From Rhizaria sp. SCN 62-66 (taxonomy: Eukaryota): 64,000 nucleotides of DNA. The first letter of the stretch is position 1; each line of letters opens with the position of its first letter. Of this stretch, positions 26,127 through 55,600 are shown piece after piece. The stretch is from NCBI GenBank assembly GCA_001724265.1, contig MEDY01000008.1, positions 62,001 through 126,000 on the forward strand, written 5' to 3'. Under the pieces are notes generated by a model. That model was not told the DNA's origin. It saw only the letters and a program-made list of their open reading frames with translations, and searched no databases. Position numbers and translations under genes: made by a program.

Positions 26127-28040
26127 TTAACGCGACCACTGCTTAGTGTTCTTCTTGCGCGGCGCCTCATCCTCCTTGCTCTGCATCTCCTTGGCCTGCT
26201 GGCGCAGCTCCATCTCGGGGCGCGCCTTGAGCGAGACCTGAAGCGAGATCTTGGGCGGCACCGTGAAGCAGAAGGCACGCGCCACGCCCATGAGGTCCAG
26301 CCCGGCGGCGTTGAACGCGTCCTTGAGCGGGTGCTGCGCGTATGCCTGGACGAAGGACCGGTACGCCTCGCGCGCCGACTTGTGCAGGAAGTAGTTCTTC
26401 TGCACCAGCTCCTCCAGCTGCGCCTGCACCTTGGCGATCTTCTCCTGCGGGAAGTCGAACTCGTTCAGCGGCACCTTGGCCGCCTGCAGGTGGCGCAGGA
26501 ACTTGAGCTCCTCGGGCATCAGGAAGAGCAGCGCACGGCCGGTCGCGTTGAGGCCGCGCGCAGTGCGGCCGACACGGTGGATGTACTCCTTGGTATCAGA
26601 CGGGGGATCGTACTGGATGATCCAGTCAACGGCCGGGATGTCGAGGCCGCGCGCGGCAACGTCCGTACAGATGAGGATGCCCTTCTCGGCGTTGCAGAAC
26701 TCGAAGAAGGTCGACGTGCGCTTCTTCTGCTTCTGCTGGCCGTGAAGGTCGAGCACAGGCACGTCGATGTAGTTGAGCAGCTCGCTGTAGAAGCGCACAG
26801 CGTTGCACGTCGACATGAAGACAATAACCTTCTTCTTGAGGTTCTTCTTGAGGAAGGTGAAGAGAAGCTGAAAGCGCATCTCGGCGGGGCACACGACGTA
26901 GCCCTGCTCGATGCCCACGGCCGTCGACACGTCGGCCGATGCGTGGACCGAGATAAGCACGGGGGTGCGGACGGAAATGCGCGCGATGTCGCGCACGTTC
27001 TTGGTCTGCGTGGCCGAGAAGAACATCGTCTGGCGCTTGACGGGGAGGCTCTTAACGATGTAGCGGAGCTCGTCCTCGAAGCCGATCTCAAGGATGCGGT
27101 CGGCCTCGTCGATGACCAGCGCGAGCAGGTTGCTAAACACAAATCCAGGGGTGTTCTCCATGTGGTCGCGCAGACGGCCCGGGGTGGCGACGAGCAGCGT
27201 GATGCCGCGCGCGAGGCGCTGGGCCTCGGCCTCGCGCTTGGAGCCGCCCATGATGACGCCGTGAGTGAGGTGGTGATACTTGCACAGCTCCTGGACAACG
27301 CCGTAGATCTGCAGGCACAGCTCACGCGTGGGCGAGATAACCAGGATACCAGTGCCTGGAGGGACGTGGCAGAATGCAAAAGAGTAGGGCGACACAAAAG
27401 CGAAACAGAGACAATGTGAGCGCGTGGGTGAAACATGTGTGTGCAGTAATTGGGCACAACCAGATAACCAAAATGGGAATAAGAACCAATAAAAAATTGT
27501 CATCGCGTATATATTATGTGATTGCGTACCGTTACGGGACTTGAACTCGGTGTTGAGGAGCATCTCGATCGAAGGAATGAGGAAGGCGAGCGTCTTGCCG
27601 GAGCCAGTCTTGGCGGCGCCGAGCACGTCGCGGCCCTTGAGCAAGACGGGGATGCAGCGCGCCTGCACCTCGGTCATGGTCTTGAACCCCATGTCGACAA
27701 TAGCCTTGCGCGTGTTCTCGCTGAGGGAGAGGAAGTCGAACTCGTAGTTGATGTTGTCTCCGTTGGGGTCGAAGGTGTCAGCGTCGAGCACCTCGTCGTC
27801 CTCGGCGTAGTCCTTGGCGGGCTTCTGCTCGCGCGCGCGCTTCTGCTTGGCAAAGCGGTCCGCAGGGGGCTCGTCGTTGTCCGACTCCTCCTCGGCAGCG
27901 GGGGCAGCCTCGGTCTTGTCAAGAGCGCGCTTCTTCTTGCGCTCCTCCTGGGCAACAGGGGCCTCAGAAGCCACGGCCTTGACAGGCTTAACCGCAGGCG
28001 CAGCGTCGGCATTAGAAACAGACTTACTCTTCTTCATCAT
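26127..28040 (-). CDS. DDX18: DEAD-box RNA helicase HAS1/DDX18; 2 exons (28040-27530, 27355-26127)
   Basis: Q motif (GFKTMTEVQ), [35 protein letters not shown] and [11 protein letters not shown], plus a Has1-type C-terminus ([19 protein letters not shown]). Removing the GTACGC...CCAG intron 27529-27356 restores [15 protein letters not shown]. Confidence 0.95.
27356..27529 (-). other. Spliceosomal intron in HAS1/DDX18 (174 nt, in frame, stop-free)
   Basis: GTACGC donor and CCAG acceptor, AT-rich; interrupts the conserved RNG|TG between motifs I and Ia. Confidence 0.88.
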
Positions 28041-28389: not shown

Positions 28390-30951
28390 TCAACCACACT
28401 TGCACAAATGGCGCTCAGGCGGTCCGTTCACGTCCATCTTCTCCCACACGAACGACGTGTTGACACGTCCGAGCTCTTTGTCCCAAAGTGCAACCGAAGT
28501 GTCGATGAAGAGCTCCACGTCAAGGAACAGAGAACCTGCGCAAGGCACACACACAAGCAACACAAGAGTAGAGGTTATGTTGTTATTAAGATATATTAGT
28601 TATACAAAGTGATAAGATTAAACAACCATGGTAAATACAGAGCGATTTATGTTCCTGTTTGTCACGTACCCATAGCGTAATCGATGGCCATCGCGGCGGC
28701 GACCGCAGACTCCGGGTCAATCTTAGCGACAATCTTCACGTCAGCGACGGAGCCCGCAGGCAAACGCGTGGTCCCGTCGCCATCCGCGGTCAGAGCAGAC
28801 GGCATAAGGTCGCTCACGGTCAGTTTTGCGGCGCTGCCCGCAGTGAGGGCGTTCGAGAGCGCGCTGACGAGAGCTGCACGCCACGGCGCCAAAACGCTGT
28901 CACTATCACTCATACTCGAACTGGCACTGACATCATGATTGTCAGAAGCAACAGCGTCATAGGAAACACCACTGTAGCTGCCCACGGTCAGTCCGAGCGG
29001 CACGTCCGCGTCTGCCGCAGAGAGAGCCAGTGGCATATATGCGACGCGACTGGACGCAGTCTGCGCGAGCTTCTTGGCCGTGGAGCCGTCGCCGGCGACG
29101 CTAGCAACGGCAACGTGGTCGCCCTTGTACTTGACGTAGCAGGTGAGGTGGTTGACGGCGACGTCGAAGCGGTTCGGGTTGTGCAGCGCGAAGTGGAAGG
29201 TTGCGTTGACGGCGACCTGAAACTCGGTCAGGGACGACAGGATCGAGCCCCAGTGGATGGACTTGTTGCACAGCGAGTACGCCGGGTACTGCAAAAAAAC
29301 AACAATAACAAAAAACACAAAGAAAACGTACAGAGAAATATGCTTAGTCTTATGAGAACCGTCTTGGATGGAACTGCATATGGATGTGTGCTATGTTACC
29401 GTAACGTACCTGAGGCCAGAAGACCATGCCGATGATGGCGGCGATGCTGACAGTGACGCCGACCACAACCACAAAGAGCGCAAACACGTCCTTGGGCTTG
29501 CAGGTGACGACGCCGTGCAGCCAGCGGCCCAGAGTGCGACAGGCGCCGCGCACGCCGCCGCCGCGGTGGTCACAGAGGCACAGACAGCAGCACGTTTGGT
29601 AGCAGCAGTCAAGCGCGCTCGCGTCACTGGCGCCGGGGCCGCGGCGGCGCGGGCGGCCGGAGCGCGGGGAGAGGTCGCCGTCGCCGTTGAGCGATCCCGC
29701 GGCCAGGGCGTCATCGTGAACCTGTGTACGCGTGAGTATGTACAAAATATAACAGAATCAACGATACATCAGCACAATCAAAAAAGAAATGAATAAACAA
29801 TCGTAATGGTGGTTATTGAAGTAACGTTTTCACATTTAAATAAAGATTGAGCCGAATTCAAGTGAATCACTGCAATCAAACATTTGTTTCCGATAACTAT
29901 GCGTCGTACCTGCATCTGCACGCGCGCGCGCATGTACTGCGGCAGCGCCTGGAACTCGGCCTCGGTCAGCCCTGCAGCGGGCATCGCGGGTGCGGCCGGT
30001 GCCGGTGCCGCTGCGGCGGCGGCGGGGCGCATGCCGAGCACGGAGCGCGCGGCCGCGGCGGACACGGGCGGCGGGGACTCGAGCCAGCGCTCGCCGAGCC
30101 GGTCCTCGCTGCTGCCCACCGCGGGCCGATCGGCGGCGGCAGCGCTCGAGCCGCGGGGGCGGGACGGCTCGGACAGGCGGTAGTACTGATCGCCGGCGCC
30201 CCCAGAGCCCGCAGTGGCGGCGGAGGCTGAGACGGCGTCGGACTCGGAGTCGCCGGGCAGGTCGGTGGGGGAGCTCGAGCACTTGAAGAAGATGCAGTAC
30301 AGCAGCGAGATGACAATCGCGAAGATGGCGGCCGCCAGGAAAATCATCAGCGGGTACACGTAGCCGGGGGCGCTGCCGTAGGAGCGAAACGTGGGGGTCG
30401 CGCGGACGCAGGGGTCTTCAGTGGGGCAGGTGAGGCCGTAGAGGCAGCCATAGACGCTGCCCACCGCGTGACACTAAGTCAAAACGAGAGAAAGACAAAG
30501 TCCATAATATGACGCGTTATGATAATAAGACGAGGATGGTTGAATTGAATGTAAGTTAAGCGTAACATATTGGGGTTTCATCAAGAGAAAAGTTCGTTGC
30601 GCCGCGTACCTGGTTGTCGTTTTCGCAGAAGTGGCAGCCGGTGGTGTTGTAGCACGCGTCGCAGTCGGTGATCGTCGCGCACGCCGCGTTGGGCGCGCTG
30701 AGTGCGTGTGAGTTGGCGACAGCAAGCATAGCCGCGGCGGTGTCAAAGAGGGAGACAGTGGGGAAAGGAGTGGTGGGCTCGATCGCATCGGCAGCAGTGA
30801 CAGTGGCAGATGATGCTGACTCTGATGCTGAGGCAAGCGAGGCTGCGCTCAGGGGGAACGCAGAGACTGAGACAATACCGATAGCAAGCAAAAGCATCGC
30901 GATGGTTTGCATCACGCGCGCACGCATAGCACGCAGCGGTGCTGGGGACAT
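28390..30951 (-). CDS. Membrane protein with signal-like N-terminus, PSI-like Cys domain, 2 TM helices and C-terminal LEA_2-like domain; 5 exons (30951-30610, 30473-29910, 29721-29410, 29288-28670, 28535-28390)
   Basis: Four GTACG...AG introns join the ORF-track fragments in frame. CATITDCDACYNTTGCHFCENDNQ|CHAVGSVYGC is PSI-like. A TM helix is followed by FWPQ|YP and FALHNPNRFDVAVNHLTCYVKYKG (LEA_2-like). Ends CKCG then TGA at 28390-28392. Confidence 0.75.
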
Positions 30952-36394: not shown

Positions 36395-36863
36395 ACAAGA
36401 AAGATATTTAGACCAGTTACCTAGACATGTGTTGACGGATTGTCGTCACATTTCACAACATAACCAATACCTACAATAAACATGACGTAGTATGTGCATT
36501 CACCATGTCTATAATACTCGCCAATACTGTTTTCAAATATCCTAGTTTCTGTTTTAAGTCTCTATGGTGTGAAGTTTAGTTGCCATCACAAATTAGCTCG
36601 CTGTCGCAAGAGATGGAGAGTCGGGATTGGCGCGCCAGGGACCAAATTGGACAGTAAAACAGCGGTCAGGACAATCGTCTTATGAAACATGGTATGATTG
36701 TCCTAAATATTAATTTAGTGTTTTTTCCTAAATCTTAATTCTACTTGCTCACAACCTCATTATGTATGTCTGTAAACCCATTGGTACTTTGCTGCAGGTC
36801 TCTGGACTCACAGCTAGCAGCTCTCTCACACCCCGTAGTTCACGCGTTCGCCGCAACGAAATC

Positions 36864-39800
36864 ATGGCCGAGTGCCCGATCTGTGGCGGCTCATTTCCGT
36901 TGTCATCGATTGACGCCCACGTTAACGCATGCCTTGACGACAAGACCGCGCGCGAATGGGACAACTAGAATGCAGGCGGACAACCCGTTCAGCAAGCTGA
37001 AGAACGCGCGCCCCAGGCTCACGACAACCATGAGAGGGACTCGGACGACGACGATGGCGAAGAAGATGACGCATATGACGACGAAGATGGTGGCGAAGGT
37101 GATGAAGACGACGCTGGCCGTAACACCAACGACGACGCCGTAGACCAGCAAGAGGAAGCACAGTTCAGGGAAGCGCTGCGACTCTCACTCCTTGACCAAC
37201 CGTCTGCGCCTGCGCCAGCTCCCGCCTCCGAGGCCGCGGCATCCGCCCCGCTTGTGCGCGCCCCCGACTCTGTGCGGCCGCTTGTCAAAAAGGAAGCCGG
37301 CATCGCGCCCGTGGTTGAAGGACGCATGCACATCAGCACAGTCCCGGTGCCGTCCAATCAGGCATACCTAAAGCAGCAACAGCTGCAGTAGCAGTGGCAG
37401 CAGAGGCGTGAATCCGACGCAGGCGCCTCTGCGGCTGCAGCCGCGCGTCCTATCGCTGTGAGCACTGTGCCTCAACCCACGCCACAGCAGCAGCCCCAAC
37501 AGCAACAGCTACAGCTAAAGCAACAGCTGCAGCAGCAATGTATGGAGGAACTGCAACTGCGACAACAGCATGAGCAGGAACTACTAGCAGCTGCAGGCCA
37601 TGTTTCTCGTGACGCGAACGACGCCTCAGTCGCTGCGAATGCAAACGCTGCAGCTGACGATACCCACGACCTGCAGCAGCCGCAGCAGCATCGGCAAGAA
37701 TATTCGCCATCGGACGCCACGTCAGACGCCGTCACAGCTGCGATGCATGCAGCGGCGGCTGCTGCAGCTGCAATGGCAGCGAGTGCTGCGCCTGGTGCCG
37801 ATATGAGCGACAAGAACGACAACAACTACGAGCGCGACGCCTCTGCCTCAGCAGCTGATGCTATGTCGGACGCAGACTCTGGAAGTGCGAGCGCCCACGG
37901 TGCCAGTGCCAGTGCCAGTGCCAGTGCCAGTGCCAGCGCCAGCGCCAGCGCCAGCGCCAGCGCCAGCGCCAGTGTGGCTGCTGCGGGCGAGGACGGCGCA
38001 GTTGACCGGCCGAACCTAGGCGTCTCTGACGGCGTCGTTTTCCACCCCGCCAGGCACAACTTCTGCTTCGACCTCATCAAGCGCGAGCCCGGCGTGGACG
38101 CGATCCCGTGCCTGCCCGCGCTCCCGCTGTCCATCACCCAGGGCTACGGCGGCGACACCGTGCTCGTGTACACGGGCGGCGCGCGAGCCGCGCTGGCGAC
38201 TATCGCCGTGGCCGCAGCGCGCAACGCGCCTGCGGCCGTGGAGCAGGCGACGGCGCTCCTTGCTCGCACGTGCGCCTAGTGGGACGCCGCCATCGCCGCC
38301 GCGACCGCCAAGCTGGCCGAGAAGCGTGTTACGGGCACAGACGAGGACATCGCGGACGCGCTCGACGCGATCGATGCCGCCCGCCAATTCAAGGACGACC
38401 ACGTGCGGCGGATGAGCGCGCGCGCGCGGGCGCTGGTCGGCAAGGCGGTGCGCGTGGCCGAGATGTTCGACGTCGCCGAGGCTGTGCTCAAGAGCGACGC
38501 CGTGGCCGGCGCGCGCGAAGTCATGACCAAGGCGCAGTACGAGCGTTGGCGCGAGGAGAACATGAGCGCGGAGGAGAAAAACGCAGAGGTAGTCATTGCG
38601 CGCGCGCTTGCGAGTGTGTATCCGGTGGCCGGTGACGCAGACAACGACCTGCAAGAGAACGACATCAGCGGCAGCGCCAGCCCCAGTGCGAGTGCGAGCG
38701 CGAGCTCGACGGAGAAGACCGCTGCCTTGACTGCCTCCGATACTGCTGCTCTAGCGGCTGCGGCCGCAGCGGCAGCGGCAGCCGCTGCGAATATGAATGA
38801 TGGTGCGGGTAGCAGCAGTTTTAGTGGTTTGATGACTGCTGCTTCTGTCAACACAAGCCTCAGTAATATTAAGGTCGAGAAAGAACACAGTGCCAACAAC
38901 AACGACTACGAGGACCGGGCGTACGACGGTGAGAGCTACGACAGCGAGCCGCCGCCCCTCATCCCCCTTTCGCCGCGCAAATCGCTCGCCGCGACACCCT
39001 CTCTGAGCGCGCGCAAGGCTGACGCCTCAAGTGCGTCTGCGGCTGCGCTTGCTGCGGCGGCAAGCAAGAAGCGGTTGCTGCCATAGGACACCGCGAATGA
39101 CATCAACGCTTCTGTCGATGGCGGCTTTCGGGGCGGTCAACAGCAAGAATCGTCGTCTTCACCGAGTGACGGCCCCATCACGCAAGACCGTTCTCGACTT
39201 CGCGTTGCAGGAAACTACGTCAACTCCGCGGCGAACGACGACGACGATGTTGTGCTCGGTCTCCCTGTTGCAGCTGCTGTAAAGCCTGAGCTGAGGGGAC
39301 AATCTCTTGGACAATCAGATGTCGACGCCGCCGCTGTAGCGCGCCTTGCGGCTCAAGCATCCGAGGCCCAAGCCGCCGCCAAAGTCTCGGCAGCCGCCGA
39401 TGCCCAAGCAGAAGCCGACAGCGCAGCTGCTGAAGCTCGCGCAGCTGCGGAAGCCCAAGCGGCAGCAGCAGCGGCAGCGGCAGCAGCAGCAGCAGTTACA
39501 GCAGGAACAGCGGTAGCGGCGGCGGCGGCGACGGCTGCGGCGGCGGCAGCGGCGGCGGAAGGGGCTGTTGTGGCTGATAGTCACGTGCAAGCTCGACAGA
39601 AGCAAGAAGAAGCTGATGCTGAGTTTGTGCGTCAAATGCTGCAGGGTGAGCGCGACGCCGAGGCTGCGCGCATTGCACGACTCGATGAGCTTGCGTTCGC
39701 CGAGGCGCAGGCTGTGGCGGACGCTGCAGACAAGGAAGAAGCTGAGCGTATCCAGCGTATCCGTGACGAAAGCAAAAACCTCAACCTGGACAGTGTTGAC

Positions 39801-42686
39801 GACTGCAATCTTGTGACGTGCCCGAACCCGAAGTGTGGCGCCGTCATCGACGCGGTGCCGGGCGATGTGCCAGAGATGGACGAAGTCAACTGCGGAGAGG
39901 CACAAGTCGCCATTTTTCGCAACAAGCGCACTGCGCGTGCTCAGGACGGTGTGTGGGGTGTCCCGGTCTCAGACTCGGCGAACAGCAACATCCAGTCAGT
40001 CGTTCACGCGGCAAAGCACCGTATCAGGTGCTATGCCTGCACCAAGAACTTTTGCACTGAGTGTAGCACCACGCCGTACCACGACGGGTACGACTGCAAC
40101 GCGTGGGTAGCCCACAAGACGGCCGTGCAGTGCTCTACGTGCCAGCGCGACCTCACGCGGCGCACGCTGTTCCTCGACTCGTCCGACCCGCAGTGGGTGC
40201 CGTACATCAACGCCGCGTCCACGAAGCCGTCTAACGACGACGATGATAACGCGATGACTGTTGCCAACGCGATGGCGATCTTGGCGGCGGGCGCGCCTGC
40301 GCGTCGGCAATCTGATCTTGATCAGCGCTTGGCTGAGGCCCGGGCCAAAGCTGACCTGAAGTTTGTTGAGGTGCAGCCTCACCGGCCCAGTGCAGACGAG
40401 CTCCTGCGTAAAGACGTGGGCAAGGGCAAGGGCGTTGTACAGCGGCGGCGCGACGAAGAGGCGCGGCATGCAGCCGCGGTCAACCAGCTTAACCTCTACA
40501 ACTCTTGGAACGAACGCCGAAACGCGTTCTACGCGTCGTTAGTTAAAGATAAGGCCAGAGTTGTAGAGCTCGAGTGTGAGTTAAACCAGTTTCTCAAGGC
40601 GGATGAGGTGTTCAAGTACAACATTGCGATGGCCACAGTCCTTCCCGATGCTGCGGTGAACCGCGCGGTGGAGCTTATCAAGGCCGGCTCGCACGTTGTC
40701 TGTCGCAAGTTCGAGTGTGTGCAAGTAGGTCTTTCTCGCTGCTGCAGCAAGCTGCCCATCTGTGGCCACGTCTGTGGTGGCGCGCGCGGGGAGACTATTC
40801 ACCCCCCGTGCTTGCGCGAAGGCTGCGCGGCCGCCATGGCCGCCAACACAGCCAACTGCGCAGCACTCGGCCTGGTGCTGAGCCAGGACACGAGGTTGCT
40901 CCCGGGACACAAGCTGCCCAACGGCGCTTCCTTCCCATACATGGTTATGAAGCCGGGTGAGCGGTTCAACAGCGAGCTGGCGCTGAAGCTCGACCCGCGG
41001 GAGGGTGAAACTGTTACGGACTGGCAGACACGGTGTCACGCTGTGGCGGTGCGTGCCAAGAATGCGCTCGCCATCACCGCTAATATCCAAGGGATGCAGC
41101 TCGAGAACGTGCCCCCCGAGGCGGCGGCCATGATTACTGGCGGTCTCAGGGTGCCTCGGACGACATCGTATATGGCTGCCATTGTGGACTCGGTGCGCAG
41201 GATTCATATGTCGCCGCCGCAAGAGCAAGCCGTTGATGGCAGCTGTGCGATGTGCTACACCGACGACCTCGGTGCAGCACCAGTGCTGCAGGTACGTGTG
41301 TGAAGAGTCAATTGTTTTCACTTGTATGGCATGATTGGTTTTTGTTTATTGTTTTTTATTTGGCAGTTATGACATGCACTTCGGACTACTCACTTTCTCT
41401 TGGTTTTAACTAGTTCTCTCACTCCTGACTGATGTTTTTGTTTCCATTTGTTCAAACGATAGCTAACGTGCGGCCATGTGTTCCACCTTGAGTGCGTCAA
41501 GAATCACTTGCGTGTCGGCTACTCGACTCGTTATATCTCGTTTGCGTTCCTCGAGTGTCCAACTTGTCACGCGCCGCTGTCACCGCTGGGCTACCCGGTT
41601 CCAGAGCACAACGTGGCGCTGCACTGGTCACCAAATCAGTACATCGAAAGCATCACCGGTCCCGCAGCGGAGCGCAACAGGCTCGCGCTGATAACTCAAG
41701 ACAACGTGAACTCTCTGAACTCACTCGTTATTGGATGGCAGACAAAGATTAAGGAACCGATTCAAATGTGGCTGCCGCTGTTTGGGATCTTTGACGTGAA
41801 CGATCCTGTCGCAGAAGTGTTCACGCTGCTCACTCAACACCTGCAACAGAAGCGGCTTGTCGAGTATCTCGCACTGCAACACCTCGTCATTCAGGGACAG
41901 CTTGTACGTTTGCATACGGTTATTTTTTGTGACGAATTATGGTATTAATTGAACTTGTGTTGTGGTATTGCTTAAATTTGTTGGTGGTGTTCAACTCACA
42001 TATTTCTATTGTGATTTGTCATTTTGGTTGATGCCTTTGAACATAGAACATCGAGGCGTTGACGAAGCCGGACTCGCGCTTCTACAAGAAGCCCCTCGAG
42101 TACGCGATCAACACATCATCGTTCTACAAGTGCTCTAAGTGCACTATCCCGTACTATGGTGGTCAGCGAGCTTGCGATGCGGGCCTTGGTGCCGCCCCTG
42201 CTAACCATAACAACAACGACGGCGAAGCCCGCGCACCAGGCGACAACGCTGACATGCTGTGTAGTCGGTGTCAGAAGAGCAGCGTGAAGCCGTGCCCGAA
42301 GCACGGTGACATGTCCATGTCGTTTAAGTGCCGTTACTGCTGCAAGGTTGGAGTCTGGTTCTGCTTTGGAACGGTACGTCATGTTACTCATCCTCGAATG
42401 TTGTTCTTCGATCATTATCACACTCCTTTTTACTGCCGGATCAAGTGTGCTTACATAATTTGTGTGTATGTGATATTATTTCAAACTTACATCTTGATTT
42501 CTACAGACGCACTTTTGCGACGACTGTCATAAGAACCCGGGCAAGTCATCACGCGGTCCTTGGCCAAAATGCCCTGGCGCAAACAACGTGATGGGCCTGG
42601 GTTGCCCGCTCAACACACCGCATCCGCCGCACGGGACGGAGTTCTCGCTCGGTTGTTCGATGTGTCGTGCTGGCCTCAATGCCTAA
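36864..42686 (+). CDS. MYCBP2/PHR-type RING-Cys-relay E3 ubiquitin ligase with UBZ4, UIM and IBR-like modules; exons 36864-41291, 41463-41903, 42047-42373, 42507-42686 (about 1791 aa); four in-frame TAG codons in the first of these exons
   Basis: One frame runs from ATG 36864 to the donor at 41292, with TAG at 36966, 37389, 38277 and 39084 and no TAA/TGA. RING: CAMCYTDDLGAAPVLQ|LTCGHVFHLEC...FAFLECPTC. Tandem-cysteine domain: YKCSKC..YYGGQRACD, CPKHG, FKCRYCC, WFCFGT|THFCDDCH, HPPHGTEFSLGCSMCR. TAA stop. A possible upstream start is ATG 36689-36691 followed by a GTATGA...GCAG intron (36692-36797), in frame. Confidence 0.85.
37902..37973 (+). repeat. Coding hexamer microsatellite (GCCAGT/GCCAGC)n encoding (AS)n
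   Basis: About 12 tandem gccagy units; translation ASASASASAS... Confidence 0.9.
41292..41462 (+). other. Spliceosomal intron splitting the RING domain of the RCR ligase
   Basis: GTACGT...ATAG, T-rich; splicing restores the RING-H2 spacing. Confidence 0.9.
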
Positions 42687-43101
42687 TGGAAACAGTGTGA
42701 ATAATATCCTTTCTCTGGATGCTACTTCAACACAACCAATTGCTGTGTGACGCGGCCCTTACTTTTATCGAAGTGCGTCGCAGCGTTGTACACTGTTGGG
42801 CTATGCTGCGGTGTTAATGACATAATCAACATGTATTTGTGTATTTTAGAGTGGCGATGTTGTTTCCCGTCACAGTATGGTTGGACATGGATAAGACTAC
42901 TTAAAACTGTACGAACCTCTGGAACTCTCAGAGATAAGTTATATAGATTAGAGATTAGATAGCGTTTACGCTGCTGGGAAGCTGCATAAAATGCAGCATC
43001 CACAACGCGGGTTTGAATTATAAACTAGGTAATACAAACATTAATTAAACAGAAAGTGCATCCACACTGGTTTCCACACCAGCAGTAATCGTTGGGGAAT
43101 G

Positions 43102-46100
43102 TTAGTCACCCACGTTATTGCCTGCAGAGTGTGCGAGACCCTGAAGCTGACGCGCAAGTTGGTTCGCAGCACGACGACGGCGCTCCATCTAGAAACACAA
43201 ACAATAAAAGTATAACACAAGACAGACAAATGCAAAGTGGTAAGTGTGAGGTGTCATAATGCATTGAGAAAATGTTATATTCGGAAGAGTTGATGTTGTG
43301 GATGTCAAGCGAGTCCGTACCTCTCGGAGCATCTCTTTCATCTCTCCCTCGACTTCCTCCGTCGCAGCCTCAGCGCGCTTCCGCGCCGCAGTCTGTTCGG
43401 CAACCTCCGCTTCTGCGCGTGTTACGCGCTCCTTCATCGCGACCACCTCAGCGCGCGCCGCAGCGGCAGCGTTTTCCGCAGCCTCCGAGCGCGCAGCAGC
43501 AGACGCAAGCTCAAACGCTGTCGTCGCAGCGGCGCGCCCACGTGCAGCCTCCGTGTCAGCAGCCAAGCGGCGCGCGTCGGCGGCCGCGGCGAGGGCGGAC
43601 TCGAGATCGCGCCGCAGCGTCATTTCAGCAGCAGTCACGCGAGCCTGAGAGTCAGTCACAGTGTGTGCGAGCTACGAGAAATGTCGCGCATAAAAACATA
43701 GTAGCATATAGTGAGAGTGAGAATATAAATATGATGTGTGTTCATTAAAGCAAAACGAAAAATTGCACATCATTATAAGCAAGTATTGTTCCCTCGTACC
43801 TCTGCCTTGGTTGCAGCAAGCTCTTCTGTGGCCTGCTTCGTCGCTGCCTCAGCACGGGCCAGCTCTGTCGCCACTTGTTTAGCACGCTCCGTCAGCGCAA
43901 GGTGCTCAACTGACAGATCCTCGAGGGACTGCTCCAATTCCTCAACCTTGCTCTTAAGCTCACTCCTCTCGGTCCTGAGCTCATTGATTTCACTGCGCAT
44001 ATGCGACGACTCGCGCTCGCCGCGCGCCCGAGCCTCGTCCAGCGCAGAGAGTTGGTCATCAAGCATGACGTCCTTCGCGCGCACCGCGGTCTCGAGCTTG
44101 TCAACGCGCCGTTGAAGCTCCGCCACCTCCGCAGCCTTGGCGTTCAGCTGCGCCGTCACAGTGGCGACGGCGGCGTCCTTTTCGCCGCCGCGTTCGCCTG
44201 CGGCCTCAGCAGCGAGCGCCGCGGCACGCGCGCGCTCGTCGGCAGCGGCGGCGCGCTCCTGGGCGGCGCGAATCGCCGACTCTGCAGTCACTGCGCGGCC
44301 ATTGGCCTCACTGATGGCCTCAGTGGCGGCGGATAGACGCTGCCGGAGTGCAAGCACCTCGTGCTCGCTCGATGTGGCGCGCGCACGGGCCGCGGACGCG
44401 TCCTGGCGCGCGCCCGCAAGCGCAGCCGCGTGCTGGGCAAGGGAAGTCTGGGCCTCTGCGACTGCGGTCAGGGCACGCTTTTCGTTCGTGACTGTAAGCT
44501 TGAGCAACGCCTTGAGATCGGCAATGTCTTGGTCGCGCGCTTTGATGGCAGCACGGTGTGTTTTGACCTCCTCAGCGGCGGCCTTATTCGCTGCCGCCGC
44601 GTCTTGGCCGAGCGCGAGGACAGCAGCCTCAGCCTCAGCGCGCGCAGCGGCTTCATCTCTCGCGCGCGCTTCGCTCGCAGCCGCAGCGTCCTCAGTCGTC
44701 TTCGCGCGGCGTAGAGCGGCGTCGCGTTCGCTCTCCGCCTTGGCGCGCGCCTGGCGCTGCGTATCCGCGTCAGAGCCCGCAGACGCGGCTTCTGCCCGTG
44801 CAGCCGCGGCCGAGGCCGCAGCGTCAGCGGCCGCGGCACGAGCCGTCGCAAGCTCGCGCGCGTGCGCAGTAGCCTGCGCAGTGAGAGCACGGCAGAGTTG
44901 CGCAACAGACTCACTCTCGTTTTGATCAACCGGCACGCCAACAAAGCCGGGAATAGGGTTGTGGTTGGCTGTCGCTGGGGCAGCGGGAGGAGCAAGGCGG
45001 GAGCGGAGAAATGCGAGTTCAGCAGCCATCATCGCAAAACGTGGGTCCTCTGGTGATGCCATTGGTTGCGCATGTGACTGTAACGGCGCGTGGGGGTGGA
45101 TTTGAGGTTGCGACTGTGTGAATGACTGTGAGAGTGATGATCGCGAGTCATCAAGTTCTTCCGTGATCGACGGGAGCCCTGCACCTGGAAACGCCCAGCC
45201 CCCGCCGTGGCCAACGATATCAACACCACCAGCGGCGTCGTCGCTCTCATTGTGCATCGGGTGAGTGGCGGGGGGCCGAGAGGAATTCGAGTTGGAGGTT
45301 GTCGCGGTGCGCGTCCCTTGCGATGAGGCATCAACTCGAGACAGTGTGTTATCAGGGTGAACGTGAGCGCCTCCACCGGGCATATCATGCGTCGCAACAT
45401 TACTTGCAGTTGCAGGAGGAGCAGAGGCGAGTGCAAGAAAGCGCGGTGACGCGCTGGGCGACGGATCGTACTGTGATGCATATGGGTTTTCATCTTTGAC
45501 AGCAGCTGAACTGTGAGCGTGGCCGTTATCATGGGTCTCCCGTCGCGCGTTCTTGCTCTGTCCAGCAACAGCTAAATACAGCTCCTCTGCCGGCATGCAG
45601 ACGCACTTTACACCGCCGCGGTGAGCACAACGGCAATATACACGGTCTTTTGCGCCGTGAACACGCGTGTGCGCATGTTTGTGCGCGTGGGCAGAGCGCG
45701 CGCTGTCACAGTCACTTCCAGAAGCCCCAGAAGACGATGATGAGGATGAAGATGACGACGGTAACGGGGATAAAAGCATTGACGGCGACAGCGACCCTGT
45801 CTCGTGCCCGGCTGCCCCGTGGTCCACCTGATCAGCGCCAGCGTCACCCTCATCGTCCGTCTCACTGCCGCTACCATCGCCGTCAGCGTTTACTCTGCGG
45901 GGGCGGCCGCCGACACTGGCGCCGCCCTCGATTTTGCGCCGCACGCGCCGGACGCGCGCTTGCTCGCGTGCCTTGGTCTGCTGCAGCAGCGCGCGCAGGA
46001 CGCCGGTGTACTTGGGGTCGTCGGCGCTCACATCTAGTGACGATGTAGACGAAGACGAGGACGAGGACAGCGGACTGTGTGCACCGCCCTTGGTAGTACC

Positions 46101-48376
46101 GGCACCGCTAACGGCGTTGGCGTTGTTACCAGCGGCACACGCGCATTTGCACTCAGCACTGTCACAAGCAGGGCGACGGCCGCTGTGACTGTCAGTGTGG
46201 AGCTGATGCTGCTGGTGAGCGCTGCACTGATACAGGCACTGCTGCTGATGACCAGTGCGATGCAGCGGCAGCGCAAGAGGTGGTACAGGTGCAGAACTCA
46301 GACTCGAGCTGGCACCATGCAGCACTGCTCCAGTGTTCATGGCGAACACAGACTGCGCTGGAGCTGTGGACGCAAATACAGAAGCAGCAGCATTCGCAGG
46401 AGGTGTGGTGTGTACGTTTGTGCTGGGAGTGGGTGCGGGCGTCCGCCGCCGCAGCCGGGCAAGCAGGTTGTCGATAGCCGGAGTCGTCGTCAGGCCCGCG
46501 CTGCTGTTCGAGGAGGTCGTACTCGGGTGGTGGAGAGACGTTGCGTCGCTTGCATCCGCGGCAGAGTGCAGCATCCGCACGACCGCGGTCTCCGTTGCCG
46601 CGCCTGCTGCCGCCGCGCCCGCAACGTCAGCATCCGCAGCCAAAGCCGCGGCAGCAGCGGCAGCGGCAGCGGCAGCCGCAGCAGCAGCCGACAAAGCCGA
46701 AGCGTCAGAAGTGACGGCAGGCACGTTGGCTGTAGCAGCCGTGGGCAGCGGCATCGGAATCAAACCCAACTGCAGCGCCTGTGCGTGCGCCTCCGCCAGC
46801 GACGCCGGCAGCGGCAACCCGTCGAGGCGCGCAAGAAAGGGCAGCAGCTGTGCGGCGTAGAGCCGGTACAGCGGGATCGCGCAGACCGGGTTCGTGAAGC
46901 TCGCGTGCGCCATCGCGCCGGCGGAGGCTGAGCCAGGGGCGTAGGGCGCGCTGTGAAGCCAGAGATCGCGAAGAGAAGTGAGGTGACGCAAATGCGAGAG
47001 CTCGGAGAGAGAGGAAATCGAGTTGCCACGGAGGTCCAGGAACTCGAGGCGAGCGAACGTGTTTTCTGCGTGTAAAGCGCGACATAAGAACACAATCCAG
47101 CACAGAAGTAACACAATTAGAAACGACAGATATGCGCATAGCCAAGAGCTTAAGTTATCAAATATTTTAAGAGGTTATGCAAATTGGCAACAACAGTATC
47201 GATGAACATCGTCACAGACATACCCATGTAGCTTTCGTCGCCGTCCTCATCATCGGCATTTTCAGTCGTAGCTGTGGTGGCAAGGCCAGCGTCAGGGCCC
47301 GTCACGCCGCCGCGGCCGCGGCCACGGGCAGGTGCCGCTCTGCCCGCAACAACCAGCGCCGAGCTATTGTGACTCGAACTGCCAGCGCCGCCGCTCGCGC
47401 GAGTGCCTTTGCTCTCAGCACCGGCAGCGCCTGCAGCGCCGGCAGCGCCGGCAGCGCCGGCAGCGCCTGCAGCGCCGGCAGCGCCTGCAGCGCGGCGGCT
47501 CGCTGCTGCGCCGGCGCCAGTCCGCGAACTCGCTGTCGCAGCCGTCTGCGCAGCGCCCGCGGTACTGCCGCTTGCGCTACCGCTGTAGCCGGCGGCAGGG
47601 GGCATCGGCACGAGGACGAGCGTTCCGTTGCTGTTGCTAGCGCCTGCGTGCGCGCCCGCAGGCCGCCAGCCAGGGGGCGGGGCCTGAAAGCCCGACTCGG
47701 CCGACAAACCCGCCAGCGTGGCCAAGCTGTTGTGCGGCAGCGAAAGCCGCTCCAGCGCGGCGAGCGGGGCGAGGCCGTCGAGGTACTGTAGCGCGTTCGA
47801 CGACAAGTCGAGGCGTGTTAGCGTGGGGGCGGCGGAGAGACCGGCGGTGGAGCGCAAGCGGTTGCGCGCAAGGGAAAGAGCAGTGAGTGCCACAAGGCAT
47901 GTGAACTGGGACGGGCGCAGCGAGGAGAGCGAGTTGCCGGCGACGCTGAGGGTGCGCAGCTGTGAAGTGGGCGGATAGGGGCGATACAGGGCGAGGAGTA
48001 ACGTGAGTGAAAATCGCATGATATCAACACAACCGCGTCAACGGAACACTAGATTGTCATTAAACGCGTGTAAAATAAAACCAAATCCCGTGTCTTACAG
48101 ATATCACCTTCAGTTCTGTTGAATTATAGCTCAAATGACGTACGTTGATGCACATGTCTAGGTTGGGAATGTCGTTGAGTGACGTGAGCCCAGAATCGTC
48201 CATAACGAGCTCACGCACAATGCCCGCTGCAGACGCAAATGGTAAACATGAAGTGGTAGGCGTAAGAGCGACTATATGTCACAGATGTGCGAATTGGCAT
48301 CACAAGGTGAGGAAAAAATTAAGGGTCACGTACCTGGACGTCCATCGCAGAGAGGCTCTGCGCCAAAGGATGCCAT
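43102..48376 (-). CDS. Leucine-rich-repeat + coiled-coil protein (LRRCC1/VFL1-like centriolar architecture); 6 exons (48376-48334, 48226-48144, 47959-47224, 47065-43800, 43644-43321, 43188-43102)
   Basis: Five GT-AG introns join the fragments in frame. SDS22-like LRRs (LRTLSVAGNSL, LTRLDLSSNAL, LEFLDLRGNSI), an LRR cap (NPVCAIPLYRLY...LARLDG) and a long C-terminal coiled coil. TAA at 43102-43104. Confidence 0.8.
47420..47492 (-). repeat. Coding 9-bp tandem repeat encoding (AGA/AAG)n
   Basis: cagcgccgg/cagcgcctg units repeated about 7 times on the plus strand. Confidence 0.8.
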
Positions 48377-50751: not shown

Positions 50752-52612
50752 TTATTGTTGGGTATGTTGCGAGGCGGGCATCTAATTTTGCTTTTTCTTT
50801 TGCTGTTGCTTATGCAACTTCTGTAACCTCGACAAATGAGACATTGATAGCGGAGCAGCTCCCAAGCCATCATTCGAGCTCACTGTCACCGCTGTGGCGG
50901 ACGAACCCGGTGACATGCGTGACGTTTGTGCACTCACACGAACATCAATGCCACCTACAGTCACCTGGCTCAACCCTCGTAGCCCACTTGATGAGGAGAC
51001 GGTCTTGGAAGCGATGACGGAGATGTCCGTAGCACCTGACAGTGGCGATGCGGATGCGTCACTGCCCTGCGAGACAGACGTCGTGCACGTGCCTGAGCCA
51101 GGTGATGTCTGCACATTACGCGAGAGTGAGTCGGCAACGGGGCTTGGGACAGTACCAGAGCCAATGCCGTCATCACTGCTGAGATTGCCCACAGAGCCAC
51201 GACGGAATTGAAGAGTTCCGCTGTCATCGGTGCCCTTTCTGACGTCGCGAGTGCGGAAAGTGACAATGCCCGGCGACTGCCTTGGGGAACCTTCGCTGCG
51301 CATGTCCAAGGCAAACGAAGCTGCCGCCGCAGGTGTGCTGCGATACTGCTGCAGTGAACGTGGCTGTGAAGTGTTGGGCGACTCAATAGTGGTTTTGGCA
51401 GTTGCGGCGGGCGGAGGCGCCAATGACGCGTCGCCACAGCCATAACCGCTGCCACTAACTTGGCGCCAGTCGTTGCGCTGATCTTCATACGAGACATGTG
51501 TCCCACCAGTCACGGTCGCATTATCAGCGCCAGCGGAATCGCCTCCATTGTCGCTGTCGCCGAGATCAGGAGAGTCGAAATGATCGGCGTCTACTGAGAT
51601 GACAGATGCAGACGCGTCATGTGCAGAATCGGGCGATGCTGCGCCGCAGGGGGCAGCCAGCACAGACACTGTGTCAACTATGTCCGTCACAGCAGGAGTT
51701 CCAACATCGCTGACGGGAACAGTGGCAATGGGAAGCTCCGTGAAACCGACAGGCAGAGAGGCGAGACAGCCATGTGACAGCGGAAAGTTCCCGACAGATC
51801 GCATATTGGCGTGCGTGACGTCTGTTCTGGCGGGAGCAAGGGTCGACTCTGAGGCAACTGACGCGAGATATGGCGTCTGTTGCACCAGCGACAAAACAGC
51901 GGAGTCGGCACCCGCACTGTTGACGCACAACTTAGCAGCTGCGGTTGCGGCGTGAAGCGCGGTTTGGGCTTCCGCATCAGCGTGCGGTTGCGTCGCATCA
52001 CGCTCGCGTTCACTGTCAGCGATGTGCACGGTATGTTGAATGGGGCACTCACGTTGACGCTGGTGATGTGCCGCATTGGCAGGACCGTAGGCAATATGCT
52101 GGACATTGTTTTCATGACACAATGACGCGCCAATCACAGTTGTAGGATCTGCTTGAGGTTGCAGCAGTGACTGTGACTGTTGTAGACTTTGCTGTTGTTG
52201 CACACTTTGGGTAGTCGCATTGGATTGATGCTTTTTAACACCCTCATCCTCGTGACCAGCCTCCTGAAGGGTCCCCAGCGGAGAGCCATTGTACAGTGAC
52301 CGACTGTGACTGTTACGCCGACTTGTCAAGTGGTGTGGCGGAACTACCCCAAGCAGACCCGGAATGTTGACAGAGAACTGCGGCATAGCCTGTGGATGAA
52401 GTAGTTGTGGATGAAGTAGTTGTTGCGGATAGTGCCGTTGAAGTGACTGCTGGTGTTGCATCACAGATTGCGGATACCCAGACATGTTTGTAGCTCCACT
52501 CATGCAGTTTGCACTTAGCATGCTACTCGTCAGCGAAACATGGTCCTTATGATGTTTAGGCATGAACAACATAACCTCACCGGCTGGAGTCGACGGATTA
52601 CCGAGTTGATGT

Positions 52613-52647
<35 letters not shown>

Positions 52648-55600
52648 TTGTTGTTGTAAGATCTGCTGCTGCATGTAATGCAATACGAGTGCATTGTAGT
52701 GAGCATGATATTGTTGGAGTTGCTGCTCCGTCGGCGGCTGACCGTTTCTGTTATCCATAAACAGGGCGGAAGGCGGAGGCGGAGGAGGTGGGATAACGCA
52801 CCCAACATTAGCACCGACAGCAAATTGCGGTTGCTGACCTTGTAACTGCACATTGGACACAGGACCCCAAGCTTCCATACGCGGACCAGGGCTATTATGG
52901 CGCGGTACATTGCCCATATTCTGCGCCGCAATGTGAGGGTTAATGATGTTTTGCAGCAACAACGGAGACAGAATACCCGCCGTGAGCCCAACAGGGTTGT
53001 TGGTGACGCCATTTGCGAGCGCACCCGCACCATGGACTACATTTGCCGGCCCACCTTTGGCGTTACGCCGTACGCCTGCACCTGGTATGTTCCGCACCGC
53101 GCGCAGCCCAGGAGTTGACGGCGCCTCCAGATTATCTAGGTTAAGCCCTGAGAATGTCAGCAGCGGCACCGGTGCAAGCGCAGGAGCAGCCTGGGCAACG
53201 CGCGCTGTTGTTTGCGAGAGAAGTAGTGGTGCCCAGCCCCAGGTCGCAGTATTGGGGTCTGTTGCATTGGTCTTGGCACTCGACACCGCAGCTTTGCCTG
53301 GACCCGCACTGATGCGGTTACGCGTGCTACGGGGCGCGGGGAGACGGCCTGCAGCAGCAACAACGCTGGTGCTGCTGTGGATTCCTTCACCGTCGACTCT
53401 AATACGACCTGTGCGCGATGAACTGTCACTGCGACTGCGACTGCGATGCGTGTTGGGTTTCTCTAAGGAGCGAACCTTCCAGAGTACTTCTTCGTTATTG
53501 TTGGGACCGATGCAACCTGTGGATGTCACCGTACCGCGAGTTCGCCCGCGGCCGCGCATCGCACGCAGCTGCGACAGTACCCGCTCACGCGCAAGCAAGA
53601 TAACAGCGCGGCGGCGCTGGCGCATCTCGCGGACAATCTCACGACGCCGGCGGCCATGGAGCCGCATGCGCACGTGAGCACTGCACCCGGCAAGAAGGGC
53701 AATGAATGACAACAGCAATGGTGTGGTGATGAACAACTCAATAATGATGCCAACGAGTGCACCAAGGGCCCACACCCAGACCCCGGCACTGTCATCGCGC
53801 GCAGCAAGGCGTACTGAAAGTACAACTGCAAAGAAAATCGCCACAATAATGATACAGGTGACAGCAGCCATCTGCACCACCAATGTTGGTAGGAATGACC
53901 ATGTGAAACAGCTGTCGCGTTGAAAATCCTGAGTGGTGCGAGGTTGGTCACCTGCCGTATATGATGTCGAGGGAGCGATGGCCATGCCTACTTCGGGTGG
54001 GGACATTGGGGGATCAGAGGGACCTCGTTGTTGCTCGGATGCGACAGACTCGCTACTGCTCACATGCAGACCCGCACGCGAAGTCGCTTCGTGTTGCGGG
54101 CGGGTGCGAATACGCCAGCAACAGAAACGCCTCTTGCTTCCCCCACGCTTGTTAAGACGTGACGACGCTGGTGGAGTGACGCCATTGCTCACATCGCTCC
54201 CACTCACAGATGGCGACACTGTTGCCGAGGCAGTGCCAGGAACATCAACAATATCGTCGTCGTCTCTGTCTCTATGTGGGAGCAAAGACGATGCCATTCC
54301 AAAAGTCATGTTATAGCTCGTGTGGGGCTGCGGGTCGACGAAGCGCTCGTAACAGCGCAGGACGTGGGCAGGATCAACGGGTACGAGCATCACTAACGCA
54401 CGCGCAATAAGCGCTTCTTCACGTCGTCGTTGTGCCAGTTGCTCTTGAAGTTCCTTGCTCGCGCTATTGCGCGTGCCTACTCCACACAAAGGGAGCCCGC
54501 TGTAGCATGCGGCAAGTGCGCGCTCGTTGAGATTTGGACCCAGGTCCTCGGAGCGCAACAGCTCGCCATCGCGGCGTCGGTGACGGCGCGCGCGCGCGGC
54601 AGCAACAACAGCGTCGCTGCGGGCACCCGTGGCAGTTGACACAGTGATGAACGTGCCAGGTAGAGCTCCACCAACAGAAGTAGTCGGAGACTCGGGCAGC
54701 CCATCGTCAATGCTGGAACCGCTCGCAAATGCAGCAGCAGCTGCCGCTGCAGTCGCAGCGGCGGAGACATTGACATCGTTGTTTGCTGGGGACGGCTTGC
54801 TGCGTTTGCTGGTTGAAACATTATTGGGGCGTGTTACTGCCATCATCGCACTGCGGACTTCTTCTTCGTTATCGCTGCTGCTGCTGGAGTTGAGATCTTC
54901 GTCAAAACCCGTGAGTGTAGTGCGCCCCCGCCACGCCTGTCCTGCTCGAACAGCAGCACTGCGTACCAATGCACTGTCACCGTAGAGCGTCGCCAATGGC
55001 AGCACGCGCAGATGCTGCTGCAGCAGACGATCGCGGGCTAACCGAGCAAGCACACTCTTCGGAAGTGTGGGGACGGAAGCTGCAACAGCGGGGACGGGTT
55101 TTGGCGATAAATGCACGGTGTCATCAGACGAGTGAGACGAGTGATCCTCAGCACTGGTTTCATTACCAGTGCTTTCATGGCCCTCCGACGAGTCATTTTT
55201 AGGCAAAGCGGGAGCATCAGCAATTTTGGCTGCATCGCGAACACCAACACCAGAGCTGGTCGCCACGTATTGTGATGTCACAGTCGCATCATTATCTATC
55301 GAGGAGACTGCGATAATCGGCGCATCCTTAAAAATGCGCACTGGCGCCACAGGAGGTGTGTCGGCCTTCGTCGTTACCACCTGACACACTGCAGGCGGAC
55401 TCAAGCTCCGACAACTGCTGGGGCTACTACTCGTACTTGGTGGAGACAATGCGGGGCTATCGGTGGCGGCACGTCCTTTGTTGTTCGCACCATCGCTTCC
55501 AGTGGAGTCACTACTTGGGCCCTCTGTTGTTGTAGCCTGAGGATCGGACGAACGTACTTCATCGTCACTGGCACGCAACACGTCGACTGCTTTCTGCCGT

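Follow-up and report, generated by a model that had tools for sequence, protein, structure and literature searches.

The locus described here raises the question of whether UAG is translated in an uncultured eukaryote, Rhizaria sp. SCN 62-66. It lies in a 64,000-nucleotide (nt) stretch of contig MEDY01000008.1 (assembly GCA_001724265.1, positions 62,001 to 126,000 of the forward strand), which we call the window and number from its first letter. The locus is a single gene whose predicted product is an E3 ubiquitin ligase module, consisting of a RING domain and then a MYCBP2-type RING-Cys-relay (RCR) tandem-cysteine domain, and its reading frame is interrupted by four in-frame TAG codons and by nothing else. 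The original prediction, made from the letters of this DNA, took these TAGs as a sign that UAG has become a sense codon. The evidence inside the gene fits that claim, whereas the confinement of the TAGs to one gene of the window speaks against it. Translation of UAG in this organism is thus partly supported and not provable from the window alone, and we would place it slightly short of an even chance.

The reading frame itself leaves little room for doubt. Translation of the + strand from 36762 to 41303 in a single frame gives exactly four internal stops, each of them TAG, and the five stop-to-stop open reading frames (ORFs) along it (36732-36968, 36969-37391, 37392-38279, 38280-39086 and 39087-41303) all share this frame. 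Exon 1, from the ATG at 36864 to the donor at 41291, measures 4428 nt or 1476 codons. The TAGs at 36966, 37389, 38277 and 39084 correspond to codons 35, 176, 472 and 741, with the translated contexts WDN*NAGGQ, QQQLQ*QWQQ, RTCA*WDAA and RLLP*DTAN. Our retranslation therefore agrees with the original prediction, exact in positions and contexts, that same-frame ORF fragments are split by these four TAGs only within a 1476-codon exon. In the TAG-bearing half the coding frame contains no TAA, four TAG and no TGA, against 17 and 27 stops in the other two frames, and in the second half of exon 1 it contains none, against 17 and 33. The frame of exon 1 is coding-like, well beyond chance. The full gene has four exons and 1791 codons ending at a TAA (42684), with the four TAGs as sole interruptions, so that the earlier statement that TAA, TGA and frameshifts are missing extends to the complete coding sequence (CDS). 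The four TAGs are as follows:

36966..36968, + strand: TAG1, codon 35, after the C2HC-type zinc finger of the N-terminus and before an acidic tract.
37389..37391, + strand: TAG2, codon 176, within a Gln-rich run.
38277..38279, + strand: TAG3, codon 472, within a long predicted helix, at residue 98 of the folded fragment.
39084..39086, + strand: TAG4, codon 741, in a linker 5′ of an Ala-rich tract.

The most trivial explanation would be an artefact, be it a mistake in assembly or sequencing, contig chimerism, or RNA editing that restores a sense codon, and it has to be considered here, as the window comes from a metagenome assembly. The original prediction had proposed to confirm the TAGs in raw DNA and RNA reads. 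We compared the window from 36500 to 43800 with contigs of four public runs, bearing in mind that contigs can lose rare variants: X3, a DNA run from a study other than that of the possible source run; X4, sampled in 2025 and representing a strain about 0.17% different (11 differences in ~6.3 kb); X5, a run flagged as doubtful; and X7, a polyA-RNA library. The X3 contigs span TAG1, TAG3 and TAG4 with no difference. TAG1 is spanned unchanged by X3 record 1, X4 record 9 and X7 record 24; TAG2 by X4 record 10, while X3 record 2 has just 22 nt on one side of it; TAG3 by X3 record 3 only; and TAG4 by X3 record 3 and X5 record 17. DNA from elsewhere, in the contigs of X3 and X4, thus shows TAG at all four sites. 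None of the four runs lists an alternative letter at any TAG at the contig level, where a minor allele or low-level editing could escape. The four TAGs are therefore real DNA, fixed across samples and no assembly error, with TAG3 resting on X3, the one run that backs it besides the possible source.

The message of the gene was also recovered. The X5 contigs skip 41904-42046 and 42374-42506, both with GT..AG ends, and therefore X5 holds cDNA of a spliced message; the joints lie at 41903/42047 for intron 2 and, in record 22, at 42372/42506 for intron 3 (cut +1). The 5′ end, with the ATG at 36864, lies in an RNA-library contig that begins at 36816. RNA-library contigs cover TAG1 (X7, polyA-RNA) and TAG4 (X5), two of the four sites, and carry TAG rather than CAG at both. 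With the TAGs unchanged in X3 (TAG1, TAG3 and TAG4) and X4 (TAG1 and TAG2) and present in these RNA-library contigs, the artefact reading is already largely refuted, and we regard it as very improbable.

The second half of the gene looks like that of a working ligase. Its closest known counterpart was found by an exhaustive HMMER search of 1.84 billion representatives, which gave 180 matches at E <= 1e-3, all but one of them to a segment resembling IBR domains. The sole true relative is P0004, a protein of 1308 amino acids (aa) encoded on an 11,474-bp contig from the Joint Genome Institute (JGI). It is 34-35% identical to the ligase in the IBR-like and Cys-rich segments, and its gene has an intron that coincides in position with intron 1 of the ligase gene (APIVQ|VR...). 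The parts of the gene are:

36864..41291, + strand: exon 1, codons 1-1476, ATG at 36864 in the context aacgaaatcATGGCC, donor CAG|GTACGT.
39636..39638, + strand: Met925, the first in-frame ATG 3′ of TAG4, just 5′ of the region conserved with P0004 and a candidate internal start.
39684..41291, + strand: conserved half of exon 1, with an IBR-like Cys/His-rich segment and a Cys-rich segment (both in P0004) and the first half of the RING domain (CAMCYTDDL...).
41292..41462, + strand: intron 1, 171 nt, GTACGT...AG, with a G+C fraction (GC) of 0.36.
41463..41903, + strand: exon 2, 147 codons, with the second half of the RING domain (CGHVFHLEC...CPTC) and a linker.
41904..42046, + strand: intron 2, 143 nt, GT..AG, spliced out in an X5 contig.
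42047..42373, + strand: exon 3, 109 codons, the MYCBP2-type (RCR) tandem-cysteine domain.
42374..42506, + strand: intron 3, 133 nt, GTACGT..AG, spliced out in X5 record 22.
42507..42686, + strand: exon 4, 59 codons and the TAA (42684-42686).

Of the 109 residues of exon 3, 107 align with the tandem-cysteine domain of human MYCBP2 (E 2e-18; PDB 5o6c_A and 6t7f_A). RING families match exon 2 at E 5e-4, under their curated cut-offs because intron 1 splits the RING domain. The IBR-like Cys-rich segment of exon 1 has a family match at E 0.0056, and the N-terminal C-x2-C...H-x3-C finger has weak UBZ-type matches (E 0.046). The Cys/His ligands are kept between the ligase, P0004 and MYCBP2. That the downstream catalytic domain and splice sites are intact, as had been claimed, is borne out by the open frames of exons 2-4 and by the splicing of introns 2 and 3 in RNA-derived contigs. 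Around TAG3, an AlphaFold2 model computed without an alignment shows a helical hairpin as its only confident part (predicted local distance difference test, pLDDT, ~85-93, in a model with a whole-model mean of 55.5), and according to this model a stop at TAG3 would cut a structured element.

The splice donors of the window are uniform (GTACGT; at 41292, 41904, 42374 and in the 28662 region), and the introns are short (133-171 nt) with a GC of 0.33-0.36 against 0.6-0.75 in exons. Uniform donors together with short AT-rich introns could be a signature of this lineage and of help in binning. Cryptic introns around the TAGs were considered and ruled out, as the sequence around them has a GC of 0.59-0.74, unlike the real introns with 0.33-0.36, and no GTACGT occurs in exon 1.

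If the standard code applies, the N-terminal half is simply ridden with nonsense codons, and the gene is either a young transcribed pseudogene or a functional C-terminal half starting around Met925 (39636) with the upstream 2.7 kb in decay. We consider this explanation plausible, though clearly on the doubtful side. Pseudogenes are far commoner than code changes, the TAGs are limited to the ligase gene and to its first 741 codons, 5′ of the sequence conserved with P0004, and the first in-frame ATG past TAG4 directly precedes that conserved region. TAG2 is a single C-to-T step from CAG. With the codon content of this GC-rich gene a random substitution creates a stop in 2.7% of cases, and in 53% of these the stop is TAG, which makes TAG the commonest nonsense outcome. 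Even so, four out of four nonsense changes being TAG, with neither TAA nor TGA, has a chance probability of ~0.077. The lack of frameshifts is harder for neutral decay to explain, since an N-terminal half of 2.2 kb that has taken four neutral nonsense changes should have taken ~146 substitutions in all (6.6%) and, with 0.05-0.2 indels per substitution, about 5-20 frameshifting indels; the probability of finding none is <= 0.0075 at a ratio of 0.05. Indels make up two of the five non-coding differences between X4 and the window. The mixture of lesions that is the hallmark of a pseudogene is not seen in the 1791 codons, where the four TAGs are accompanied by no TAA, TGA or break of frame.

Strain variation, in a very small sample, tends in the same direction. 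TAG1 and TAG2 are common to the X4 strain and the window, and they predate the split of X4 because X4 carries both. Its differences in the part of the CDS that it covers are four synonymous and two non-synonymous (Gly to Ser and Val to Leu), corresponding to an omega of ~0.16 (Fisher 0.034; n=6), and all three strain differences upstream of Met925 are synonymous (P 0.014-0.077 depending on the mutation model). The use of an internal start is also difficult to reconcile with the RNA contig from 36816, as this includes the ATG at 36864 and a scanning ribosome would miss Met925. Decay of the gene as a whole is contradicted by 1050 downstream codons free of lesions, by three intact introns and by the conserved Cys/His ligands.

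If UAG is translated, Gln would be the simplest residue, as the original prediction proposed, and at one site this finds support. TAG2 lies in a Gln run, and within the gene a repeat copy (family D6) at 37519-37540 matches 37375-37396 in 20 of 22 bases, with CAG at the place of TAG2. Because of this copy, the ancestral codon at TAG2 was most likely one for Gln, as judged from the comparison of the two sequences. The residue is not fixed by homologs at any of the TAGs, and Leu is a further candidate for TAG1, TAG3 and TAG4. No homolog aligning over any of the four sites was found in the search of 1.84 billion representatives, and P0004 covers none of them. An alignment made by eye that placed TAG3 opposite a Gln near the start of P0004 was dropped when 229 of 500 shuffles scored equally. 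The ESM Atlas gave IBR-like leads only, every one below 0.9, and a metagenome scan with the ligase alignment found nothing. A second scan with P0157, a relative of the helicase HAS1 encoded in the window, found 18 loci without an orthologous TAG site among them; apart from one, L011 (see below), these loci matched no other gene of the window than a kinase, to which L007 and L008 show a distant match. In a prokaryote genome collection neither the HAS1 protein nor an exact 33-mer spanning TAG3 gave a match, and the dispersed repeats of the window are low-complexity only.

The window is gene-dense on both strands, with long ORFs interrupted by few introns or none. Annotated neighbours of the ligase gene are a PH/EF-hand kinase, a P5-type ATPase, a major facilitator superfamily (MFS) transporter and the HAS1/DDX18 helicase, next to a 4405-aa ORF with a GPS motif and several ORFs without a family match. 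The original prediction had itself cautioned that TAG is missing from the neighbouring genes, and this holds for eight neighbouring long ORFs (1133-4405 codons among them) with not one TAG in 14,424 codons. When the ORF list was redone with TAG read as Gln, a material change was seen in the ligase gene only. The TAGs gained by extending neighbouring ORFs in this way fell in AT-rich intron or upstream sequence that is not coding-like, and they were discarded.

TAA ends nine of the eleven ORFs of the window, the ligase gene included, with one TGA and one TAG as the remainder. TAA prevails despite a third-position GC (GC3) of 0.52-0.87, in a count of terminators that is indicative only. The stop of HAS1 is a true C-terminus according to the alignment with its relatives. 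The two deviating ends are:

595-620, + strand: end of ORF 1-600, a TGA within a donor-like GTGAGA, with an in-frame TAA five codons on; the TGA may mark the end of an exon instead of a true terminator.
50752-50784, - strand: end of the 4405-aa ORF, a TAG at 50782 with an in-frame TAAGCA 10 codons on.

The TAAGCA context is also present at three TAA ends, including the homology-verified stop of HAS1. If TAG is a sense codon, the TAG at 50782 would be a fifth in-frame TAG, and all verified stops of the window would then be TAA.

Some further observations concern the neighbours themselves. The giant ORF at 50785-63999 (-) is longer than 4405 aa, as it is open at the end of the window; the only motif recognised in it is the GPS (G protein-coupled receptor, GPCR, proteolysis site; E 1e-4), and it contains long Gln/Ser/Ala tracts. 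In HAS1/DDX18, a stop-free in-frame insert of ~58 codons at ~27195-27375 (-) that relatives do not have is an unspliced intron, and the ORF of the closest relative also restarts there (alignment A2). Two ORFs of the - strand, 47150-48037 and 43773-47174, lie in different frames, have 25 nt in common and are probably one gene with an intron (43773-48037); its product has weak leucine-rich repeat (LRR) and TACC-like coiled-coil matches.

Several results weigh against translation of UAG. Four TAGs in 741 codons of the ligase against none in 14,424 codons of its neighbours is a strong bias (Fisher 5.7e-6), and given the ligase's share of Gln codons (48 of 673) the probability that all four TAGs would fall in it is 2.6e-5. 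These figures reject a uniform use of TAG as a rare synonym of CAG as firmly as neutral decay is rejected, and the reading of UAG as a translated codon therefore needs an extra, gene-specific assumption. All four TAGs also lie within the first 741 of 1791 codons (P 0.029), 5′ of everything conserved with P0004. The hallmark of a sense UAG, in-frame UAG across many genes, is not seen within the 64-kb window. Neither a tRNA gene (ARAGORN) nor an Rfam match was found in these 64 kb, and eRF1 is not among the genes of the window; the lack of a visible suppressor tRNA equally suits a decaying gene. Among the eleven ORF ends only two are verified true termini, HAS1 by alignment and the E3 ligase by the end of its domain, and several TAA ends overlap GTAAG-like strings that could be splice donors. 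The statistics on strain variation rest on seven differences only, five synonymous and two non-synonymous once the X5 difference is added. Finally, TAG1 and TAG4 are present in RNA-library contigs, but the X7 contig over TAG1 may be DNA or pre-mRNA, because X7 also holds unspliced intron 3 in its record 29 (42393-42562), which runs from inside this intron into exon 4.

The gene-specific nature of the phenomenon would also be expected if UAG is a normal stop and read-through in this gene gives a little, possibly regulated full-length ligase along with short N-terminal products. The gene is otherwise intact and apparently constrained, and its mRNA is detectable. However, four serial read-through events multiply to a tiny yield unless each of them is efficient, and no eukaryotic gene with as many as four internal read-through sites is known to us as a precedent. 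The bases that follow TAG1 to TAG4 are A, C, T and G, with no shared context; the flanks of the TAGs have no common motif; and shuffled sequence folds as well as the 120 nt that follow each TAG (z +0.84, -0.56, +1.33 and -0.03). Nothing suggests a programmed read-through element at the TAGs, and we consider read-through improbable.

Neither of the two simple models, a genome-wide rare synonym or neutral decay, fits. The breaks by TAG only, the absence of indels, the mostly synonymous variation, the spliced and intact catalytic half and the TAA-rich ORF ends may be taken as the trace of a translated codon, and the restriction to one gene, and to one half of it, as the trace of a local loss of constraint. 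In the scenario that would combine both, this is a live and transcribed RCR-type (MYCBP2-like) E3 ligase gene of an uncultured GC-rich eukaryote with few introns, in which UAG would terminate poorly or not at all, leaving TAA as the working stop. Each of the four UAGs would be translated, most simply as Gln, via a suppressor or near-cognate tRNA(Gln). UAG would still be very rare, inefficiently decoded and probably mildly harmful, thus selected against nearly everywhere, and may have reached fixation only where constraint is weak and the chain largely disordered, in the N-terminal half of one low-abundance ligase. Three parts of this scenario are inference: the decoding of the UAGs as such, the residue inserted, and the cause of their clustering in one gene.

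The organism itself is within reach. The stretch is at least partly present in 12 of 14 listed runs from bioreactors, wastewater and activated sludge, dated from 2015 to 2025, and this recurrence means that it can be re-sampled. Its HAS1 is carried by six contigs, the longest of 161,484 bp. HAS1 gives no taxonomic affinity because the best named matches are distant (49-62% identical) and spread over many supergroups; a placement among sainouroid rhizarians would be speculative. L011, a JGI contig of 3372 bp from a separate metagenome, has 100% protein identity over exon 1 of HAS1 and the ORFs 28662-29390 and 29778-30473. On the strength of this identity L011 is assigned to the same organism; it covers ~28.0-31 kb of the window and does not reach the ligase.

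What would such a codon mean? Routes to codes in which UAG alone is reassigned have been argued from theory, whereby the codon either falls out of use first (codon capture) or passes through an ambiguous intermediate. The gene may reflect an early or ambiguous stage on the way from stop to sense, with TAA as near-sole terminator, UAG decoded (probably as Gln) yet almost unused, and CAG-derived drift in a weakly constrained region. We hold this stage to be unlikely on present evidence. If true, such a stage would link the standard code, as a natural intermediate, to the UAG-only codes known from Iotanema, from exLh among the rhizarians and from phyllopharyngean ciliates. The documented UAG-only nuclear codes are finished states, and a UAG that is translated but nearly absent would be a snapshot of the transition outside ciliates. 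Reassignment of UAG alone with UAA as stop is already known, and the new element, if the best reading holds, would be a decoded but almost unused state in a GC-rich organism that is not a ciliate. No report of such an intermediate state or of this organism was found in the literature searched, supplementary tables aside. If instead the standard code applies and the N-terminal half is decaying, the locus would be of little wider interest, a gene region in ordinary decay whose lesions are unusual in being all nonsense and free of frameshifts.

To date, UAG=Gln with UAA (and UGA) as stops has been described in the fornicate Iotanema spirale (PMC5304391) and in the phyllopharyngean ciliates Hartmannula sinica and Trochilia petrani (PMC11687900). 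According to the data summarized in these reports, UAG makes up 18-32% of Gln codons and occurs in 78-84% of genes under the UAG=Gln codes of Iotanema and ciliates (PMC5304391, PMC11687900), and in the UAG-only phyllopharyngean ciliates overall 78-91% of genes have an internal UAG and UAA accounts for 92-98% of stops (PMC11687900). The present gene resembles the UAG=Gln codes in that the in-frame stops are UAG only, UAA is the main terminator and descent from a Gln codon is likely for one site or more. It differs in that UAG amounts to four of 673 Gln-type codons, all in one of ~10 genes. The spread of UAG over most genes in every documented UAG-only code, as far as the accounts in these two sources extend, weighs against its translation here (PMC11687900, PMC5304391). 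UAG=Leu is likewise represented by the rhizarian exLh (Sainouroidea), with 384 UAGs in 71 transcripts (PMC5304391), and by three TARA phyllopharyngean metagenome-assembled genomes (MAGs), with UAG in 81-91% of genes and UAA as 96-98% of stops (PMC11687900), on the figures that these sources present. As in those codes UAG alone is involved here, whereas TAG2 lies in a Gln run and has CAG in its repeat copy.

Another comparison is offered by the ambiguous, context-dependent stop/sense codes that, in the descriptions given there, are found in Condylostoma magnum, Parduczia and Blastocrithidia (PMC5304391, PMC4967479). In Condylostoma-type codes a stop codon far from the 3′ end of the mRNA is translated and one close to that end terminates. 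The four UAGs of the ligase gene are similarly more than 2.5 kb from the 3′ end, and a TAG stands 10 codons before TAA at the end of the 4405-aa ORF. In-frame stops are abundant across genes in such codes, unlike the neighbouring ORFs of 1133-4405 codons, which have none. As for the protein, the tandem-cysteine domain in exon 3 comes directly after the RING domain as in the MYCBP2/PHR family of RCR ligases, while the N-terminal 1400 residues are unrelated to that family and consist of a UBZ-like finger, an acidic tract, poly-Gln/Ala/Ser and the IBR-like Cys-rich segment. With a unitary pseudogene the locus shares multiple premature stops in one gene only; in contrast to such a pseudogene it has no frameshift, TAA or TGA, its omega is ~0.16 (on six differences), and it is transcribed and spliced with its catalytic half untouched.

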